DNA of 63,676 bases, filler included. It is 10 parts of 10 records of this genome, joined end to end, with 100 filler letters (N's around TTAATTAATTAA, not from the genome) between each part and the next. Parts side by side here need not be neighbours in the genome. Positions count along the whole stretch, not along the records: positions 49,107 to 56,561 come from SRR7504441_117; 9 more parts are not named here. One strand, given 5' to 3'. The notes below the pieces were generated by a model. It did no database searches. It was given only the letters and a program-made list of their open reading frames with translations, and was not told where the DNA came from. This document shows, in pieces, positions 5,986 through 60,534 of this stretch (positions are counted from its first letter, which is position 1; each line of letters opens with the position of its first letter). Both the position numbers and the translations under genes were made by a program.

Positions 5986-6085
5986 NNNNNNNNNNNNNNN
6001 NNNNNNNNNNNNNNNNNNNNNNNNNNNNNTTAATTAATTAANNNNNNNNNNNNNNNNNNNNNNNNNNNNNNNNNNNNNNNNNNNN
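5986..6085. other. Artificial contig-join linker
   Basis: 44 N + TTAATTAATTAA (stops in all six frames) + 44 N. Confidence 0.97.
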
Positions 6086-13904: not shown

Positions 13905-14004
13905 NNNNNNNNNNNNNNNNNNNNNNNNNNNNNNNNNNNNNNNNNNNNTTAATTAATTAANNNNNNNNNNNNNNNNNNNNNNNNNNNNNNNNNNNNNNNN
14001 NNNN
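13905..14004. other. Artificial contig-join linker
   Basis: N44-TTAATTAATTAA-N44. Confidence 0.97.
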
Positions 14005-22815: not shown

Positions 22816-22915
22816 NNNNNNNNNNNNNNNNNNNNNNNNNNNNNNNNNNNNNNNNNNNNTTAATTAATTAANNNNNNNNNNNNNNNNNNNNNNNNNNNNN
22901 NNNNNNNNNNNNNNN
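22816..22915. other. Artificial contig-join linker
   Basis: N44-TTAATTAATTAA-N44. Confidence 0.97.
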
Positions 22916-37213: not shown

Positions 37214-37313
37214 NNNNNNNNNNNNNNNNNNNNNNNNNNNNNNNNNNNNNNNNNNNNTTAATTAATTAANNNNNNNNNNNNNNNNNNNNNNNNNNNNNNN
37301 NNNNNNNNNNNNN
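37214..37313. other. Artificial contig-join linker
   Basis: N44-TTAATTAATTAA-N44. Confidence 0.97.
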
Positions 37314-40642: not shown

Positions 40643-40742
40643 NNNNNNNNNNNNNNNNNNNNNNNNNNNNNNNNNNNNNNNNNNNNTTAATTAATTAANN
40701 NNNNNNNNNNNNNNNNNNNNNNNNNNNNNNNNNNNNNNNNNN
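40643..40742. other. Artificial contig-join linker
   Basis: N44-TTAATTAATTAA-N44. Confidence 0.97.
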
Positions 40743-44504: not shown

Positions 44505-44604
44505 NNNNNNNNNNNNNNNNNNNNNNNNNNNNNNNNNNNNNNNNNNNNTTAATTAATTAANNNNNNNNNNNNNNNNNNNNNNNNNNNNNNNNNNNNNNNN
44601 NNNN
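44505..44604. other. Artificial contig-join linker
   Basis: N44-TTAATTAATTAA-N44. Confidence 0.97.
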
Positions 44605-49006: not shown

Positions 49007-49106
49007 NNNNNNNNNNNNNNNNNNNNNNNNNNNNNNNNNNNNNNNNNNNNTTAATTAATTAANNNNNNNNNNNNNNNNNNNNNNNNNNNNNNNNNNNNNN
49101 NNNNNN
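49007..49106. other. Artificial contig-join linker
   Basis: N44-TTAATTAATTAA-N44. Confidence 0.97.
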
Positions 49107-49346
49107 TCCATTGGTCACCTGCAGGCCCCGTGCATGAACCGATTGGCTATGGAGGCTCGAGGCTGCCTGCGGTCCCCACAATGAAGCCGTTATTCCTGCC
49201 CGGTGCGTGTCAGGAGCGGCCGCCGAATTGGCATACCAGCTTTGGGCGCAATTGTAGATCAAAACCTTGAACAGCATGAACAGTAAGGTTGTATAGATAG
49301 TGTGCCATAGCGTCCTCAGGAAAGCTATGGTCCTCAGGAAAGTCAT
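49107..49346 (-). CDS. Possible 5' end of a membrane or secreted protein (truncated)
   Basis: Open frame MTFLRTIAFLRTLWHTIYTTLLFMLFKVLIY runs to the contig edge, divergent from the next gene as elsewhere in the window. Confidence 0.3.
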
Positions 49347-49519
49347 CGGGGCTACGGCGACTCTTCAGGGCCGTCAGACAGTCAATACAGGAACTCAGCA
49401 CCACCACCTCACGCCCAGGATGCACGCAGCGGCTGCCAGTGGCTGCAGGTCGCACTCGCAGAGGGGTGTGGGCTGTGTGACTTGTAACGAAAAAGGCACA
49501 AAGCCGTTACTTACTCGCG

Positions 49520-51032
49520 ATGAACCCGGGCCGGGCCGAGGAGCTGCGGCAGTGGCAGGAAGAGCTGACCGGGGGCGAGCGGCTGCCCAACACCACCCTG
49601 CTGGTGGCGCGTACCGGGCAAGAATTTCTCTACAGACACCAGACCGGGCACTGCAAGCCGGGTGTGCCAATCGGCCCCCAATCGCTCTACCGGATGTACT
49701 CGATGACAAAGCCGGTCACCTCCGCCTGCGTGATGCAGCTGCTCGAGCGCGGGAGACTCCAGCTCACTGACCCGGTCTGGAAGCACCTCGGGCCCAGCTG
49801 GAAGAAGAAGGCAGCCGGCCCTGGCGCCCGGTGGCTCACCGGGAGCTGCAGCACATGGCGGTTTACAAACAAGGCAGCTACGACCCCGAGAGCGGGGAGT
49901 ACCAGACTGTGCCGTGCGAGCGGAGCATCACGGTGCTCCAGCTGCTGACCCACACCTCTGGGCTTTCGTACGGCTTCGACCGGTCCGGAATGTTCAACCC
50001 AGTAGATGGCATCTACGCGGCCGCAAAGGTGCACCGGGACGCCCCGCTGGCCGAATGGTGCGACCGGCTGAGCAAGTGTCCGTTGATGTTCCAGCCGGGC
50101 AGCTGCTGGTGGTACGGGTGCCGCTGGCCGGCCTGCTGTGTGGCTGATGTGCTGGCCAGGTACAATACGGATGTGTGCGGGGCTATCGTGCAGGCGGCCT
50201 CGGGCCAGCGGTTCGACGAATACGTCATCGAGCACATCTGCACCCCTCTCGGGCTGCGCGACTGCCGATTCGTGGTGGACGAGGCCGACGAGGCCCGATT
50301 CTGCGACAACTACATGCGGGCTGGACAGACCCCGGGGATGCTAGCTCTGGGGCAGGCTCCGGAAGGAGACGCCGGGCTGCAGCTGCTCAAGCAGGACTCG
50401 GCCCAGGCGCTGCGTGAGCGTCTGATGGTTTCGGGCGGCGGCGGGCTGGTGTCGACTGCACAAGAAATGCTCCGATTTATCCAGGTGATGAGATAGGGCT
50501 GGCTATCGGCTGACTGGAGCTAGATGGTGCTCAACCACGGCGAGCTGGACGGGGCGCGGGTGCTCTCGCCGGCCTCGTGTGCCATGATGACCACCAATCA
50601 GCTCCGGCGAGGCGGCCAGCCTGCGAGCATGCGGGAGATGACCCCGGACCTGCCCGGGTGGGAGAGCCCAGCCGCAGGAGACTGAATCGGGCAGGTACAC
50701 TGAGGCTGCCGAGGCCGGGGTGGGATTCGGGATCGGGTTTGCGGTCGTGATAGACCCGGCGCTGACCTGCAAATTGGGGCCTGCAGGGGTGAGGCAGCGG
50801 CGTGGTGCCGATCCCGAGCCCATGGGAGCAGGTGTTTTACTGGGGAGGAGCGGCGTCCACAGTGTTCTGGGGCGATCCAGTCAACCAGCTCGCAGTAGTG
50901 TTCGCGACCCAGCTCATGTTTCGGGACGACTTTGCGCTGCCGTTGCGAGCGCTGCTGGCAAATAGAGTCTATGGTGCGCTTACTAGCGTTGCGGATGGCA
51001 CTTCCAAGCCCGTGATGCGAGCAAAGCTATAA
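49520..51032 (+). CDS. Beta-lactamase-family serine hydrolase (EstB-like), multi-exon
   Basis: YRMYSMTKP (SxxK), LLTHTSGLSY, FQPGSCWWY, SGGGGLVST, GFGIGFAV, WGGAASTVFW. Introns include GC-AG 49811-49851. Confidence 0.88.
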
Positions 51033-51153
51033 ATAATTCGGATTTTTGGTAGATTTTTGGAAACACACGATCGTAAAATCCTCGCGTGAGGCTTACGCCC
51101 CTCGATGCGGGCATCAATGCACCCCACATAGATTTATTCAGATTAAAGTGCGA

Positions 51154-52593
51154 CTAAGTCCTTACCGTGCGACCTTCAGCTATCGCATCCTCGTCAATTG
51201 GTTGCACGAGCAGGAGAATAATTGCCGAGATAAGAGTCGATCCTGCGGAAACCCAGTAATAAATCTCTGTGCTGTTGATGTCGAAAGACCCTTGATGATC
51301 AGGAGGCACAAAACCCCTCAAGGTCTGCCAGCTACAAAAGGGACCAACAAACGCAGCAACGCCATATGAGACGACCATAGTGCTTATCGCCGTCCCAAAG
51401 TTTGCAGGACCGAAACATTCAAACCCTAATAGATAGAATATGACTTTGTTGGCACCCAGGCAAAATCCGATGAGTGACTGCAAGACGATAAACCACTCCA
51501 CGCCAATGTGCTTGCTTTCATGGATAACATAGCCAGACATGCAGAAGCTAAACATTTGCAAGACCAGCATGCCCATGTAGACAAGCTTCACCTTTATGAA
51601 TTTGGATAGGAATCCAGTGATAAGCCGCGCAACTGCATATGATGCCAGTAGAGTAGCTGACGTGAGCGTTTGTTCACTATCAGATGCACTGAACGTTGTA
51701 TTCATCAACGGGGAAACCATGTATTTGACCCCAAAGTCTGGAACGAGGCAAAAGAAGAAATTCAACCAGAGCAAAATATATGTCGACGACAACACCAACT
51801 CCTTCTGGTCCAAGACAATCTTGATCGAGGGCTGTGGAGTTATTCCCGGCGACGCCTCGTCATCTGTTCTTGCTGTGTCGTCTGAGTCCTGACACGCCTC
51901 CTCCCGTTTAGGCACAACCGTAATGCCGATTGAAACATATGCCAGCACGCTCACAACCAGGACAATGCCAGCTGCCACGCACATGCTTCCTGCGTCGCCC
52001 AATGCATTTATAAGTCCAGTGCCGTAATACGCAAACGATGCCGGCCACAGCCCCATCGAGAACCCGCACAGTCCGACGCCTGCTCCAGCGTAACCCACCT
52101 GCTTGAACCACACCAAGCAAGGGAGCACGCACACGAAATTCAACCCGGCTCCGGTCCCATACAGCGTCATCCCAATGGCGAACAGCCACAATTGCTTTTC
52201 GTGGATTGCGAGAGCTGCCAACAGCAGTCCAGCAGCCATTGATACAGTACCGATGGCGTACAGTTGGCAAATCCCGATGCGTGCCACGTGAGGCCCAACG
52301 GCCGCACTCACGATGGCACTGGCCAGCGTTGCCGCCGAGAAGATGTACACCACCGACCCGTTCCGCGTATCGTACGCCTCGTTCCCATAGAAGACGGCGT
52401 AGATGTCGTTGATCCAGACGTTGAAACCATACAGCACCGAGGTGAAAACAGTGGCGCAGGTTATGGTGAACAGGTTGACCGTGAATGCGAACCGGGTCGG
52501 CTCCGACTCGGCCAAGTGGTGAGCCCAGGCTCGAAGCGGCACACGCTGCCCGCTCGGGCGATCGGTGACGCTCGAGTGGCCCCCGCGCCCCAT
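51154..52593 (-). CDS. Major facilitator superfamily transporter (12 TM, OFA-like)
   Basis: 479 aa in two 6-TM halves with a central hydrophilic loop; GPHVARIG and FGPANFG-type MFS motifs. Confidence 0.8.
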   Translation of the reverse strand: MGRGGHSSVTDRPSGQRVPLRAWAHHLAESEPTRFAFTVNLFTITCATVFTSVLYGFNVWINDIYAVFYGNEAYDTRNGSVVYIFSAATLASAIVSAAVGPHVARIGICQLYAIGTVSMAAGLLLAALAIHEKQLWLFAIGMTLYGTGAGLNFVCVLPCLVWFKQVGYAGAGVGLCGFSMGLWPASFAYYGTGLINALGDAGSMCVAAGIVLVVSVLAYVSIGITVVPKREEACQDSDDTARTDDEASPGITPQPSIKIVLDQKELVLSSTYILLWLNFFFCLVPDFGVKYMVSPLMNTTFSASDSEQTLTSATLLASYAVARLITGFLSKFIKVKLVYMGMLVLQMFSFCMSGYVIHESKHIGVEWFIVLQSLIGFCLGANKVIFYLLGFECFGPANFGTAISTMVVSYGVAAFVGPFCSWQTLRGFVPPDHQGSFDINSTEIYYWVSAGSTLISAIILLLVQPIDEDAIAEGRTVRT

Positions 52594-53100
52594 ACGCCCC
52601 AGGGGTCCTACTGCTGGATAGAGGGCGGCGGGCTAGGCAGTGCTCTGGAGCTGAGCGCAGTGCCTGGCCACCCAAGAGCAGCTGCGGTAAGTTGCAGTTG
52701 GTTGCGGCCCAGGTTGCGGCCTGGGCTCTTTACAGTGCTATCTGGCTCCAACGGGCTAACGACACTTTCAGTTTCGAGTTCAGGGTCAGTGCCACTACGG
52801 CAGTGTACAATGTTCAAGTACTAGGCTAGTACTAGGCAGTGCTCAAGGAGATTATTTTACATTGATCCATGTATCCGTCAGTATATTTTAAACAAATATT
52901 CATAATGATAGTTTGAGGTTGATACTCGCCTCGGTATACCTCGGTATCAACCCAGGTGTAATCGTACCCAAGTAAAGACTAGATCTGATAGATACCAATG
53001 CGAGGGGCGGTCTTCACGACATCTGAACTGCCCAATCGTGAAGTCTGGAACATGAGCAAGCTTCAGCATGCTCGCTGGACATGTGGCATGAAATCCATGC

Positions 53101-56100
53101 TCACAAATAGAACATCTTCTTGTGCAATTGAACTTTCTGCTTGTCCCAGGGCAGATCGATTGCCATCTGTCCAAAGTCCACCGGGCCTGCTTGCTGGAGA
53201 TGGGTGCGGATGCGCTTTGCTGCAACACACCCCAGTAAGGATAGGTACCGGCAGTTGCTGTACCTGCAAGGTCGGCATAGTACAGTGCAGGCACTTTGGA
53301 GACTGAGCGTGTGCAGCGCCCATACAAGAAGCATAGCTGCAATCCTGACTCAGAACTCCATCTAGAAGGGGATCTAGATGCCTGGAATGTCATCCGGATC
53401 AGATCATTGAGCCGGTAATTGGCTTCATTGGAGGAAAGAACGACATAGCGTGGCATTTTGGGTTTGCCGACAACAGCTACATGGCTCTGCAGCCGAAACT
53501 CCATGTGCTCAGAGCTACAGACTCCTTGATCAGCCACAAATCCTGCCCTGGGATTCCCTTTCCAGTCCTTTGCTGCTGCGTCTGTTGGAAAGATGTGGAT
53601 CTTGTCATGCATGCTCATGATGTACGTGATCTTGGCTTCAGGAGCTGCCCGCTTGATATCTGGAATTTCCAGTGCCTTGACCTGCATTCAGCCTTAGATG
53701 GCACAGTCACATCCACTCACACTTGCAACTTCGCCAATGGGCACAGAATCCCGATAAACGAGGATCTCCAACGGACCATTTCCATGGTTGCGTCGTCCGT
53801 ATTCCTCCAGAAGCAGTTGAATGGAATCTTGCAGTGCCACCACGCGCTGGGCTGCTGTGTCTTGCAGCGTGCAGTCATTAGTGTAGAAGTTGAGGTTTGC
53901 ATCTACAGTCCTGAAAAACAGCAGCGCCTGAGCCGGGCATCAAATGCAAGGCACCCAGTGACAGAAGCCACAGAAGCAGCGCCAGGACGACGATCAATGT
54001 GGATCCCAACCACAAGGAGACGGGCAGGATCGATGGCGGGGTCATGGAGTTTGCAGTGCAGGCCGCCAAGGTGGAGATTAATCTGCGTCTCACAGTGAGC
54101 CACCAAAATCACTCAGGTCAATACCTTTTGAGCCACATTTGGAGCATATGATCTGTCGATGCGATTGGTTGAGATGCCCAGCTTTTCTCTGAGCTTCGGA
54201 AGGCTCACGCACTGCACAGGCAGAGGTTGTATCCTACAACCTGTGCAGTTGTGTACTCTTTCTGGAAGTAGGATGTCGGCTGCATATTTGATTGCCTCGT
54301 ACAGTGGAGTGTTGTCCTTCTTGTTGTCGTACGGCAGCATGCACATGATGATCTGAGGGGCGTTCTTGCGAGCGTGATATACGTGATCTCCGCACGCCCG
54401 CAGGGTTTCGTAGATGCTGTTTGCTTCGTTCAATCCCGTATGCACAACATAAGACGCTGGGCTCTTTGCTGTGATCCCTGTCTTTTCTATTTCGTCGAGA
54501 AGTGCATCGATGTCTGGCATAGTCTGCTGCTTCACAACACACTTGGCCACTTCTTCACGGCTTGCAAAGGAAACAACTCCCCAGCACCGCACCTCCTTTC
54601 CTTGGTCAAATTGTTTCGCCGCTTGCACAGCCGGCTTCCATGACTCGGCCTCGTAGTACAAGCTCGATGCAGCTGGATGAGGCAAGATGACATGAAATAG
54701 CTCAACTTGCTGCAGGTGGGCTGGTGCAGATCTCAGGCTCTTCTCAGGGCTGCTGGTGCCCTCAACCGACAGCATCTGAGCCCAGTCATGTGGCCAGATG
54801 CACAGGATTGCTTGCACATGGTGCCCGCAGCTCTCAGCACATCGAACGATCTCGCCTGTCGGGTCAGAACGAGCTTCTGGTGGCGCATATCGAGCCCGAG
54901 AAGGCCTGTGACTGAAACACGACCGACCAAACTCATCATGCAAGTTGTTGACAAGCCGGTCGCTGTCCATGTGCTCAGGGAAATGAACTAGGCCATAGTA
55001 GTCAAGCTTTGCATTCGAATGCCATTTCTTCCCAGCCATATTCCACTCTCCCACAGAATCTTTCCCGTGGATTGACCTCGATGCTTCGACAGTCCTGTTG
55101 TTGCCATAGTCCAATTTGGGGGGAGCCAACAGGCGAGCTCTGATCTGCACACTCACACCATCACGGGGCACCAAACGACAAGGATTGGCACCTGCATCTG
55201 CTCTATCTCGATCACCACACCAAGCACTGCCAGGTTAGCAACAGACTGTGGCACGATCTGCTGATAAGCCTCCTGAACCTGCCTCTCTTTCTGCGCAGCT
55301 GTGACAGAGACTTTCTTCTTGAACTGCTCCTGCAACAGAAGTGACTCTCGGGATAGCAGTGCTCTCACTTTGAAATGGCTGAGGTCTTTGTTGTCATTCA
55401 GCTGCTTGAACTGCTGCCCCGGCTGAAACTGTACCTGGCCCACATATCAGGGAGTCATCAGCAGGGCAAGCATGACCAGCTCCATTGGGAACCCTATCGG
55501 TGCCCCAGACTTCGTTGTTTTCTTGACAAAGATAAGCGGAAGATCAGGATTCTTGAGGCGACGGCCGTATTTCTGAACAGTCCCAACTCAGAACGCTCTT
55601 TCATGCACCAGGTGGCTACCTCATAGTAGTAATCCTTCACAGAGATCTTCAGGCCCAGACCGTTGGTGAACATATAATCCCGCGCACTCGGCCCGAGGTG
55701 GTCCAGGTAGTGCTTGGTGCATTTTGGCTCTGTGCGGTTGACTTCGATGGCTTGCCCTTCTAACATCTGAGTCCACGCCTGAGTGAGATGCCACCTGCAC
55801 GTCACACCTGCTGGTGGAGCTTGACACGTGCTTCCTCAGCGTCGGATGCGGTTTGAAAGGTGAGGAAGGCATAGCCTCGGGAAGCGCCCTCGTGGTCGCG
55901 TACAACCTTGCTCTCGGCTTTGGCACATTTCTTGGCAGCCAAGAGCTGTTGGAGTGCTTCTTCGGCCACAGTCGGAGCAAGGCCGCCAACGTGGAGCTGG
56001 CAATCGGTAATGTAGTCTTGCGGCACTACTAGAGCGAGCGATCTCTTGAACAGCCCACGCCGTGTCTCGAGTGGAAGGCGAGACTTCTCCATCGCATGCC

Positions 56101-56380
56101 ACCAGTCCGCAAGGAATGCTGGATCCGACGGGAACGCAGGCATGTGCACCCGGTCCGCAACGAGGAACAGCTGATGGCCAGCCTGCATCACCGTATGATA
56201 GACCCCACGCATCAACTCCACGACGCCTTCACGGTCGAGCATGGTCGAGTCCCGAGGGTCAAACAACCCAGCGCAGAGCCTGATCATACGAGGGAAGCCC
56301 TGGACGATGGCGCTCCTGGTCATCTGGCCGATCAGCCTGGCGTTGATCACACCTGCATCGCGCGTCACGGGCCAACCCAA
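53101..56380 (-). CDS. AGO: Argonaute-family protein (L1 - PAZ with RRM insert - L2/MID - PIWI), multi-exon; N domain missing at contig end
   Basis: L1: ELMRGVYHTV..LFLVAD. PAZ: ISVKDYYYEKYGRRLKNPDLP..FPMEL..PGQ. L2: ARLLAPPKLDYG..GEWNM. MID: LYEAIK, VQCV, NVAQKINLHLGG. PIWI: ILVYRD, GNPRAG, FRLQSH, LCFLYGRCTRSVSKVPALYYADLA, C-terminal MFYL*. Confidence 0.92.
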
Positions 56381-56561
56381 CGGCCGAACTAAGGTGCTGC
56401 GGACCTCAAGTCCAAGCCGGCGTGGGGGACTTAGGCTTAACTAAAGCAGGGGCTGGTTTCACTCCCCCGCCTAGCTAGCGATAGGGTGGTGGAGGGGCTG
56501 GTATCGCGCCCCCGCTACCCGGGCCGGCGGCTGGGGTGCTCAATCCCCAGTCCTGCCCGAC

Positions 56562-56661
56562 NNNNNNNNNNNNNNNNNNNNNNNNNNNNNNNNNNNNNNN
56601 NNNNNTTAATTAATTAANNNNNNNNNNNNNNNNNNNNNNNNNNNNNNNNNNNNNNNNNNNN
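56562..56661. other. Artificial contig-join linker
   Basis: N44-TTAATTAATTAA-N44. Confidence 0.97.
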
Positions 56662-56730
56662 CATTTGGAAGACGCATAATTTTAGGATAACGACGGGCTG
56701 CGGCACGCGAACACCCGGGCTAGGGGCTCG

Positions 56731-59700
56731 ATGGGGGTGGAGGACCTGTGCCGGACGCTCGGTTCGGCGCTCAGCTGCAGCGGCTGGCTGGTGGCCTGCG
56801 GCTGCCGGGACAAGCCGCCCGAGAGCGAGCTGCCGCTGGGCGACTCGGTCAAGCACTGCCTGCTCACTCGGATGAGCAAGGTGCAGTACCGGGTGCATCT
56901 GGCCTTTTGGTGGGTTATGTCCGTTGGTCTACTGGTGGCGGTGGTGGTGGCCGAGCACATGATGGGCCAGGAGCTGGCCGGGACGGTCACCGAGCTGCAG
57001 GATGGGTACACGGAGCACGTTGCCAGCGATCCCTCCACCGACGGTTACTACTGCGCGCCGCAGAATTACGGGCAGCCCTCTGACGGCAGTTTCCAGCTGC
57101 TGAGCACCTACCCCTGGCTGTGCAGCAAGACCCCCGGGACCAAGTTCTACTCCAGGTACAGGGTGGTTGCTTATCCGTTACCGACCCAGGGCGCGCTGAG
57201 CAACACCCAGCAGCTGTGGCGGTGTTGGGATGAACTCCCGACGGACGACGGGCGCTCATCCCCAGGCACTTTGTGGAATAGACGGGACGCGAGGGTGCGC
57301 CGAGTGACGTTGTACATGAATCGATCGCTCCCCGGAGGCGGGTGGTGGGCAATGCCGACTGCTGACTCAAAGGTGACTGGATTCGTGGGCGAGATGATGT
57401 TTGTATACTGGGCGGCCTTTTCGCCTCCAGCCGACGCGCTCGGGTACTATGCAAACGTCACGTATTTTGATCCGTCCGAGTATGGAGTGATGGAAGAGTT
57501 TAGTAACAAGTGCCTGTATGGGGCTCCCAGTGCATCGAGCATCTTCATTGTTATCCTGGGACTCGTGAATTTCCTCACGTTCATGCTGCTGGTCGTGACC
57601 ACCCAGCTCTTCTTCTTCTTCCAGGGCACGGTCCGGGGTGCGTGGTCTCGGACCCTCGCACTGCAGCGGAACCTAATCATATTGCTGCTCTTCATTCTCC
57701 TCAGTAGCTCTGTAGAGATCTTCATGCCGTTAGCGCGAGAATGGACAGTTTTCCTCACGCTGCGAGTTCTGGACATCATCGGGCTGTGGGGCGCGGTCAC
57801 ACTCGTACTCAACTTCCCCTACTTGACCAAGCCGGTTTCATTACTGGACGAGCCTTGCTTCTGGATCGGATCTTACCTGGCCCCGCTTGCTATGTGGGTA
57901 ATTTACTGGCCCCAGGAACTGAGATTTGCTCATTGCCCCAGGTTCATTATCGATATATACGTAATTTTCACGTACGGCGAGGCTCTCTGGATGTATCCAT
58001 ACGCTGGGTCTACGTATGACGAGATGAACATGATTGATCTGGATCCTGGAGCCATAATCGTCCAGACTCAGATGCTGCTTGGGATACTGATTGGGTGGAC
58101 AATCTATCAAAACTATAAGCACGCCTATAGAGGCACGCTCGATTCGGAAGACTATGTGCAGCAAAGAGACTGGATCATTGCCAAGGCCTACTTTTGGAGG
58201 TTTGCACAACTTTATATTGCCGCTCTCAGCTACTGCTCTGCAGCGCCGCGCTTGGTGGATTCATTCTCGGCTACAGCGTATACATCGTCTGGCGCTGGAT
58301 GGCAACGAGCAAGGTCTACTTTGCGTTCGAATTCTTCTTTGCAAGGTGCGCTTCCTGGCAACCGGCTCCTCTCAGCCAGGGCTGCAGGGATAATCTAATT
58401 GTGACAGCCAGCAACTCATTGGTGCTGCACTTTTTTGTCTGGAACGTTGTGATTTGCACAGCCCCGATGGGCAACACTCAGTTCCTGTCAACGCTCACCG
58501 GCAAAGCTGACGAGGTGGCGGCTTTGTCCTGTTGGACTGATGAAGTGGCAGGCTAAAAAGCAAACACTGCTTCGATCGGTAGACTACTCGGTGAGTGGAT
58601 GTGCTTTGCCATGTTGAGCTGCTGTGGCAGGTCTTCTCTGTGTATTGTGCTTTCCGGAGACTCGTTCAAGTGGCCAGGCAGTCAGAGGGCGACTTTAAAG
58701 ACGACGTGTCCAAGAGAGACCGGGGTTACAAACATCACGTGCTGCCACCGATGATGTGCGTGCATGGAGAGCGGCTGGGGCTATGTGTGAAGTGCCCTGA
58801 AGGCAAGTGCAACCAGAGTACGGAGGGCGTCGAGCAACCATGGGAGTTGGTCTTTGATCCTCTGCTGTCTCGGGGCATGGCGCGCTTGTGCAACGAAGTG
58901 TATGAAAACTTTGTCACGGGTGGGCTTGTGAGCGGAGTGTCGTATTCACTAGCTTTGCGTGCAGATGAGGAGATGCCAAAGCGAGACGGGATAACAGTCA
59001 AGCAGCGGCTGAGCTGGATGCGCTTCGGCAAGCAGCTGCCGCAGAATCTCGACTGCAGGGACAAGACCACCCGGACTAACAGGCTCTCAGGGATCAGGAT
59101 GATCCATTTTGTGTCTGTGATCGAAGACGCGAAGGGTACACTGGTCGACGGAAACCTCGGCATGTTTGAAAACACTGTCATCAGGAACGGTCAGGAGTGC
59201 AAGCAGATGATCCTAGCTTTCCGAGGGACGGCCTCAGCACAGAACGCCAAGACGGATGTCGATTCTAGCCAGGTGTGGACGGCGAGCCGTGATGCAGAGC
59301 GCAGTGTGGTGGGCAGGTGCCATGGTACATGTTGGATCAGCTCCACCCAGAATGCCTCGAGGTACTGAATGCTAACGGACTACTGGACAAGCGAGACCTG
59401 CCGAGGGTGCATCAAGGGTTTGCTAAAGTTGCATGGGTTCTCGCAAACAAGGTGTGGCTGCAGGCACTTATTGAGCAGCCGAGCCTTTTTTGTGGCAGAT
59501 CTGTAAAAACTTCCGGGCAGTCCTCACAAGATGGAAAAAAGCCAACGCTGAGAACGTAGAGATCGTCTTCACCGGGCATTCGCTGGGAGGAGCGCTGGCA
59601 GTGCTGATGGCCACAGCATATGCAGCACATTTCATGACTGGATCTGGTCCACTTCGTTACGACATAAACGGTGACGGAATGCTCGACGAATACGAGCTGA

Positions 59701-60434: not shown

Positions 60435-60534
60435 NNNNNNNNNNNNNNNNNNNNNNNNNNNNNNNNNNNNNNNNNNNNTTAATTAATTAANNNNNNNNNN
60501 NNNNNNNNNNNNNNNNNNNNNNNNNNNNNNNNNN
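60435..60534. other. Artificial contig-join linker
   Basis: N44-TTAATTAATTAA-N44. Confidence 0.97.

Follow-up and report, generated by a model that had tools for sequence, protein, structure and literature searches.

Argonaute proteins bind the 3' end of their guide RNA in the PAZ domain, one of their most highly conserved regions. The solved structures of human AGO1 (4kre), AGO2 (4ola), AGO3 (5vm9), and AGO4 (6oon) and of Arabidopsis AGO10 (7sva) share the same order of PAZ, L2, MID, and PIWI. Combinations of an Argonaute with a further domain have been reported. The prokaryotic SLFN-pAgo (bioRxiv 10.64898/2026.05.29.728809) reportedly consists of an Argonaute core and an extra domain, but the fusion is terminal and involves no RRM. 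Plant Argonaute gene models with "unusual domains" (PMC4181786) are terminal fusions or doubtful models, and the term "RRM" occurs 0 times in that article. A small-RNA paper on Emiliania (PMC4839659) presents Argonautes with PAZ and PIWI and makes no mention of an RRM. An RRM fold tied to a non-slicing Argonaute complex is encountered in the GW182/TNRC6 family, in which the RRM is reported to act in silencing instead of as a classical RNA-binding domain (PMC2685099). Here, we describe an Argonaute gene that encodes a complete RRM between an L1-like stretch and the core of PAZ. It is located on the minus strand of a 7,455-base contig (SRR7504441_117), which occupies positions 49107-56561 of the window, namely, the entire stretch of DNA analyzed (63,676 bases). 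GW182 is a separate protein bound via GW repeats, whereas the RRM reported here belongs to the same polypeptide and is found in or next to PAZ. Searches of the open full-text literature yielded no description of an Argonaute with an RRM, although automatic annotations of such proteins may exist unnoticed. The protein may represent, as proposed in the initial annotation of this DNA, an undescribed class of effector in which the RRM would have an RNA-binding role.

Pfam searches with the open reading frame (ORF) pieces of the minus strand revealed, in order, ArgoL1 (weak), RRM_1, PAZ, ArgoMid, and Piwi (Table 1). This is the domain order that the initial annotation had anticipated, except that ArgoL1 remained below its cut-off and that the N-terminal third of PAZ was not recognized. 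All sequence strings quoted in that annotation were found on the minus strand. The spliced model contains 10 introns of 39-47 nt each, nine of which are of the GT-AG type and one of the GC-AG type; its frame is intact through all 11 exons, and its C-terminal end reads "...KKMFYL*". RRM_1 (PF00076) matched residues 150-210 of the ORF at 55802-56440 (-) with an E value of 1.8e-8 and 34.6 bits (curated cut-off, 20.7 bits), and the RRM as a whole occupies 56002-55722 in the window, compared with the previously proposed 55999-55725. The domain shares exons with Argonaute-like sequence on both sides and, in agreement with the initial proposal, does not form part of a neighboring gene. Residues 116-198 of the spliced model, including the strand encoded by exon 2, were aligned without a break to a local RRM profile composed of 495 RRM domains from 150 listed database matches. 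At the end of this alignment, the profile consensus "...elngkelegkkirveraqkka" was placed over the window sequence "...KLHQQMLEGQAIEVNRTEPKC". Since the strand encoded by exon 2 matches the RRM profile, strand 4 completes the RRM.

A HMMER search with exon 1 against 1.84 billion representative proteins resulted in 388 matches at E ≤ 0.001. The 150 matches listed cover the RRM part only, with identities of 26-39%; their best stretches start at query position 98 at the earliest, and at position 129 or later in all but three cases. They are mostly multi-RRM proteins of 250 to approximately 1100 residues, many of which have four matched stretches. None of the 1.84 billion representatives matched at E ≤ 1e-30; considering, furthermore, that all 150 listed matches are confined to the RRM, the window protein or a close ortholog is not contained in that library. 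The RRM is similar to classical RRMs (the 388 matches; the Npl3 RRM, PDB 8b8s and 7qde) in its RRM_1 match and in its fit to the profile from beta1 to beta4, and these matches identify it as an ordinary RRM_1 member. Unlike in the multi-RRM proteins, it is present as a single copy that appears embedded in a domain of another protein.

A word-indexed search with the PIWI exon retrieved two proteins, P0151 and P0152, among 725 candidates. P0152 comprises 894 amino acids (aa) in a single open frame; its contig, which belongs to a different assembly, measures 3,662 nt, and its cluster has no other member. Pfam recognized RRM_1, PAZ, ArgoMid, and Piwi in P0152 (Table 1) and found no ArgoN, ArgoL1, or ArgoL2 at E ≤ 1. 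The tblastn alignment of P0152 with the contig was collinear over the whole gene (E = 1.7e-77), and one of its segments spanned the sequence from the L1-like part through the RRM; the ArgoL1-like stretch of the window protein aligns with the N-terminal region of P0152. In a global alignment of both proteins, 302 of the 848 aligned columns were identical (35.6%), and the RRM was found at the same place. Because the same layout is present in an independent assembly, neither contig chimerism nor the fusion of gene models can account for it, and its retention at 36% identity implies that the arrangement is old. P0152 begins with a Met only about 95 residues ahead of the segment that precedes the RRM, and the Argonaute N domain may be absent from the family.

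Further searches for relatives did not extend this set. Word-indexed searches for longer proteins with exon 1 (0 of 2902 candidates at E ≤ 0.001) and with the 373-aa MID ORF (0 of 2847 candidates) returned no match. Scans with back-translated patterns were empty for metagenome contigs of JGI (exon 1 and a three-sequence alignment), viral contigs, and prokaryotic genome contigs. The ESM Atlas contained no usable match for exon 1; for residues 1-330 of P0152, it provided weak leads (score of 0.82) to ArgoL1/PAZ clusters of at least 50 members, none of which lists an RRM.

Parts of the stretch are contained in at least 20 sequencing runs, among them at least six RNA runs; four of the RNA runs were used for the transcript analysis, whereas the 16 other listed runs, with shares of 0.05-0.13, did not enter it. 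Eight RNA contigs, derived from these four RNA runs of three studies, were placed on the gene with identities of 90-100%; three of the four runs are poly(A) libraries, and for run X6, the identity of the contigs with the window is 99% or higher. RNA contigs skipped half of the modeled introns (55767-55807, 55330-55368, 55145-55191, 53682-53720, and 53337-53381). The first of these interrupts the RRM and, in a contig from a poly(A) metatranscriptome, was spliced exactly as predicted in the initial annotation. A 35-nt loose end behind position 55433 consists of diverged letters of the end of exon 3 ("...PIAFPMEL"), which implies a sixth intron at 55435-55476. Splicing of the mRNA was thus confirmed for five of the 10 introns, with a sixth one implied. 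The remaining introns (55573-55619, 54083-54124, 53911-53954, and 53220-53263) are without RNA cover; their support comes from the intact frame, the dinucleotides at the splice sites, and the collinear alignment of P0152. Gene parts that lack RNA contig cover are uninformative with respect to expression. We take the Argonaute gene to be a real gene of a marine microbial eukaryote that is transcribed in seawater. The intron at 53337-53381 (-), 45 nt long and in frame within the PIWI region, is the GC-AG intron, and run X10 provided an RNA contig that lacks it. At the very positions of introns 53682-53720 and 53337-53381, P0151, a 265-aa PIWI fragment from another assembly with 50% identity, has 17 and 16 additional residues in frame (MAFFT alignment). 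It probably represents genomic sequence read without splicing, from a relative in which these introns occupy the same positions.

Among the solved structures, the similarity of P0152 ranged from an E value of 2.5e-43 for human AGO1 to 6.5e-38 for Arabidopsis AGO10, with values of about 1e-43 to 1e-40 for AGO1-4, whereas members of the PIWI clade were matched at 8e-15 or weaker. Its PIWI, MID, and PAZ matches place the window gene in the eukaryotic AGO clade. The similarity of P0152 to the solved AGOs covers the region from PAZ through L2 to the start of MID, as well as PIWI. Compared with the solved AGOs, an RRM of approximately 80 residues precedes the PAZ sequence from profile position 33 onward, the profile matches the N-terminal half of MID twice, and His takes the place of the first catalytic Asp. 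This replacement is present in both proteins ("gvhm" in P0152 compared with "gadv" in AGO1; "GIHID" in the window protein). The second catalytic Asp is kept (P0152 "yrdsv" on AGO1 "yrdgv"; "YRDSV" in the window protein). At the last tetrad position, the window protein has Asp ("YYADL") and P0152 has Ile. Judged by these residues, neither protein has an intact DEDH/DEDD tetrad, in accordance with the initial annotation, and the window protein is presumably not a slicer.

Residues of both guide-end pockets are largely conserved. Within MID, "pvqcl" and "aakmnlhlgg" of P0152 align with "atqcv" and "clkinvklgg" of AGO1, by which the Gln and Lys of the pocket region are kept; one pocket Lys of AGO1 aligns with a His in P0152 ("nlhlgg" compared with "nvklgg"). 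What we take, by eye, to be the Tyr-x3-Lys pocket motif reads "LYEAIK" in the window protein and "LYDSIK" in P0152. In PAZ, the window protein keeps Tyr or Phe at "KHY," "YMF," "KDY," and "EKY" (aligned via P0152 to AGO1), positions that, going by structural work on PAZ, presumably line the 3'-end pocket. On exon 3 of the window gene, Pfam recognized PAZ from profile position 70 to 102 with an E value of 1e-4; the score of 22.7 bits does not reach the cut-off (28.8 bits). The initial annotation had also noted a duplicated MID segment. Two stretches indeed match the same region of ArgoMid, but a self-BLAST of the window protein detected no internal repeat at E ≤ 10, so that a duplication of the N-terminal part of MID is plausible but weakly supported. 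The local RRM profile also touches both MID stretches weakly ("GLVHFPEH..." and "WGVVSFASREE..."; i-E values of 0.044 and 0.0023 with two targets), which we take as a chance resemblance of a strand-helix unit.

We tentatively combine these observations in the reading that the gene encodes a non-slicing, guide-loaded Argonaute in which an RRM in the N-terminal third of PAZ adds a contact to single-stranded RNA. The protein would represent a small, divergent Argonaute lineage with a complete RRM built into this third of PAZ, and its domain order would be an L1-like stretch, about 40 residues that most likely correspond to the N-terminal PAZ helices, the RRM, the PAZ core, L2, MID with its N-terminal part present twice, and PIWI. 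Because the residues of the 5'-phosphate pocket and of the PAZ 3'-end pocket are kept and the first Asp is replaced by His, the protein would bind a small guide RNA and act in silencing without slicing. From a position at the edge of the pocket for the guide 3' end, the RRM could provide a second, guide-independent hold on single-stranded RNA. The RNA held may be the target strand at its exit from the cleft, across from the guide 3' end, or a 3' tail of the guide, and the effect would be a longer dwell on targets for slicer-independent silencing. We infer the assignment of the pre-RRM residues to PAZ, the exact insertion loop, and all of the function.

A number of observations weigh against this reading; they concern the integrity of the gene, the position of the RRM, and its role. 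As to integrity, none of the RNA contigs bridges either RRM border by at least 31 nt (records 2 and 1 of run X1 span 55991-56213 and 55733-55987, respectively), and the RRM region is covered by two known sequences only. In addition, the 5' end of the window gene is missing. An acceptor-like site is present at 56353, and only 208 nt of contig sequence precede exon 1; in 56354-56561, there is no ORF with a start, and no in-frame ATG occurs upstream of model residue 11. P0152 contains 26 more residues that align beyond the 56353 end of the window model. Since P0152 aligns further and no start is present upstream, the gene is truncated by the contig end at 56561. Moreover, nine of the 12 codons of exon 1 that are changed in related RNA contigs alter the residue (listed differences, a small sample). 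The same applies to three of the four changed codons of the PIWI exon. Over these 16 changed codons, a tiny sample in which part of the differences stem from contigs with a depth of less than 5, the substitution pattern is close to that of no constraint. At 56003-56213 (-), contigs of runs X1 and X10 (approximately 94% identical) replace the residue in six of seven changed codons; in this very small sample, the L1-like and pre-RRM segments may thus be evolving rapidly at the protein level.

The unbridged borders, the near-neutral substitutions, the loss of catalytic residues, and the origin of the contig from a fragmented assembly would fit an artefact or decay, in the form of a chimeric contig, a fused model, a skipped exon, or a pseudogenized paralog. 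We nevertheless consider this explanation highly improbable. Both RRM borders are located inside exons and in one frame, so there is no splicing decision at either of them, and all 11 exons are in frame. The same domain order is found in an independent assembly as one open frame of 894 aa, correctly spliced transcripts were obtained from poly(A) libraries in three studies, and the architecture has survived a divergence to 36% identity.

The second group of observations concerns the position of the RRM. The initial annotation had placed it inside PAZ, after the first PAZ strand. Its location N-terminal to the PAZ core and C-terminal to the L1-like stretch was corroborated; an insertion after the first strand was not demonstrated. 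The segment between the L1-like stretch and the RRM contains about 42-43 residues in the window protein and approximately 33 in P0152, which have R-G-L and a few other residues in common. The PAZ match in P0152 starts at profile position 33, at most 7 residues after the end of the RRM. The first 32 profile positions are thus unmatched, and the pre-RRM segment has about the length of these positions plus a short linker, which supports an insertion inside PAZ. However, the pre-RRM segment had no match in the PDB at E ≤ 10, either alone or as a two-sequence profile, and Pfam detected in this region only the weak ArgoL1 match and no PAZ. Furthermore, phmmer aligned P0152 182-381 to human AGO1 265-458; here, the "RVEPAR" that makes up the last RRM strand in P0152 coincides with "kvevth," which is the first PAZ strand in AGO1, and no gap occurs as far as "YMF"/"qtf." In this register, the last RRM strand corresponds to the first PAZ strand, which makes the insertion site ambiguous. 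This strand is therefore RRM-like by profile, yet positioned like a PAZ strand by register; in P0152, the alignment to the RRM profile ends at residue 181, ahead of a shortened strand 4. An AlphaFold2 model of P0152 was too poor to decide (mean pLDDT of 38, pTM of 0.26, alignment of three rows). Exon 2 alone gave a single PDB match, to a nanobody (E = 0.82), which was taken as chance.

Three arrangements are compatible with these data. The first PAZ strand may be upstream of the RRM ("RRGLFKRSL" in the window protein, "TRGLKLKAP" in P0152), with the RRM in the first hairpin; the RRM may follow the N-terminal PAZ helices and precede the first strand, for which its own last strand stands in; or the N-terminal part of PAZ may be gone. 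In a rival reading, the RRM would be found at the L1/PAZ junction and not inside PAZ, the N-terminal helices and first strand of PAZ would be lost or too diverged to be recognized, the last RRM strand may act as a substitute for the first PAZ strand, and the function could be the same. This alternative is in line with a PAZ match that begins only at profile position 33, immediately after the RRM, with the superposition of P0152 182-187 on the first PAZ strand of AGO1, after which the next 200 residues follow with small gaps only, and with the failure of every search to recognize the pre-RRM segment as PAZ. The low-confidence AlphaFold model, a weak indication, shows nothing but helices at P0152 96-114 and places no strand ahead of the RRM. 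We regard a junction position as rather unlikely, because the RRM is complete on its own, with a last strand and tail that match the RRM profile and hence need not be a PAZ strand. Both proteins, moreover, harbor a conserved segment of 33-42 residues, approximately the right length for the N-terminal part of PAZ, between L1 and the RRM. Known folds also suggest that a strand common to the RRM sheet and the closed PAZ barrel would be sterically awkward. An RRM within the N-terminal third of PAZ is our tentatively preferred placement.

The third group of observations relates to the role of the RRM. Its RNP1 in the window protein is RGYAFLTF, which fits what we take to be the canonical RNP1 motif at all eight positions, and its RNP2 is LHVGGL, with a His at the aromatic position. 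In P0152, the corresponding motifs are KRLAFVKF and LCVRDF, in which two of three aromatic positions are lost. Consequently, just one of three aromatic RNA-stacking positions is common to both proteins, and so few shared RNP aromatics argue against a conserved canonical RNA-binding face. The RRM could instead be a protein-docking or structural module, comparable to the RRM-like domains of some silencing cofactors, that recruits effectors to a non-slicing Argonaute. Such a function is suggested by the degenerate RNP1 and RNP2 of P0152, by the tetrad that is not intact, which means that the Argonaute needs partners, and by the RRM of the GW182 family, which reportedly acts in silencing and not in classical RNA binding (PMC2685099). 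On the other hand, the canonical RNP1 of the window protein and the nature of the closest listed database RRMs, which are part of multi-RRM proteins that we take, with no name attached, as classical RNA binders, make a purely docking or structural role doubtful in our view.

The reading with a contact to single-stranded RNA can be extended to an undescribed lineage of marine-protist Argonautes with a rebuilt guide 3'-end lobe, in which an RRM was grafted into PAZ, perhaps with its last strand as a replacement for the first PAZ strand, the N-terminal half of MID was duplicated, the N domain is perhaps missing, and slicing was lost, and in which the RRM would read a feature inaccessible to ordinary Argonautes, for example, a 3' tail of the guide or a sequence motif next to the target site. 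We consider this extended version unlikely; if true, targets would be chosen by two RNA-recognition modules in one protein. An RRM built into PAZ would be a natural experiment in altered guide or target holding. It would also imply that the PAZ lobe tolerates the insertion of a domain, which is of interest for engineering, and would point to small-RNA pathways in uncultured marine eukaryotes that are unlike the scheme of model organisms.

Table 1. Coordinates of features in the window and of domains in P0152 (residue numbers for the latter)
Feature	Position	Strand	Details
Argonaute coding region, 5'-partial	53101..56353	-	Spliced model: 11 exons, 940 codons + stop
Exon 1	56353-55808	-	ArgoL1-like stretch + RRM beta1 to alpha2
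Exon 2	55766-55620	-	RRM beta4, then PAZ-like sequence, one frame
ArgoL1-like stretch (weak)	56153..56230	-	Pfam profile positions 19-44 of 52, E 0.037-0.11, below 22-bit cut-off
Segment between L1-like stretch and RRM	56003..56131	-	Contains "RRGLFKRSLALVVPQDYITD"; candidate PAZ N-terminal part, by position + length only
Complete RRM, beta1 to beta4 + short tail	55722..56002	-	Pfam RRM_1 + local RRM profile; intron-interrupted
Intron inside RRM, helix 2/strand 4	55767-55807	-	41 nt, GT-AG; X1 record 1 joins 55766 to 55808, 34 nt on shorter side
PAZ core	55369..55721	-	Rest of exon 2, exon 3, exon 4; introns 55573-55619, 55435-55476
First ArgoMid-like stretch	54941..55051	-	Profile positions 5-42, E 1.4e-6, 28.9 bits (cut-off 27.5)
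Second ArgoMid-like stretch (weaker)	54530..54616	-	Profile positions 12-40, E 0.04; followed by the part with the 5'-phosphate pocket motif
PIWI + C-terminal tail, exons 7-11	53101..54082	-	ORF pieces match Pfam Piwi (E 3.2e-11, 4.8e-4)
RRM_1 in P0152	128-180		E 6.2e-6, 26.4 bits (cut-off 20.7)
PAZ in P0152	187-269		E 2.9e-8, 34.1 bits (cut-off 28.8); profile positions 33-110 of 123
ArgoMid in P0152	Two stretches		Pfam
Piwi in P0152	576-872		E 5.1e-45; profile positions 1-298 of 302
Linkers between contigs	5986-6085, 13905-14004, 22816-22915, 37214-37313, 40643-40742, 44505-44604, 49007-49106, 56562-56661, 60435-60534		Artificial
Linker ending the Argonaute contig	56562..56661	.	N44 + TTAATTAATTAA + N44

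The window is a chain of about 10 contigs joined by nine linkers of the form N44-TTAATTAATTAA-N44. These linkers are artificial, and features that flank one of them are therefore not genomic neighbors. Rfam identified no RNA gene in the window. The contig that follows the Argonaute contig contains a 570-codon ORF at 56686-58398 (+) with several long hydrophobic stretches, as judged by eye, and no Pfam match. On the Argonaute contig itself, a gene for an MFS transporter is located downstream of the Argonaute gene at 51154-52632 (-), in the form of an intron-free ORF of 492 codons (MFS_1, E = 1.4e-15); these two are the only recognizable genes at 49107-56561.

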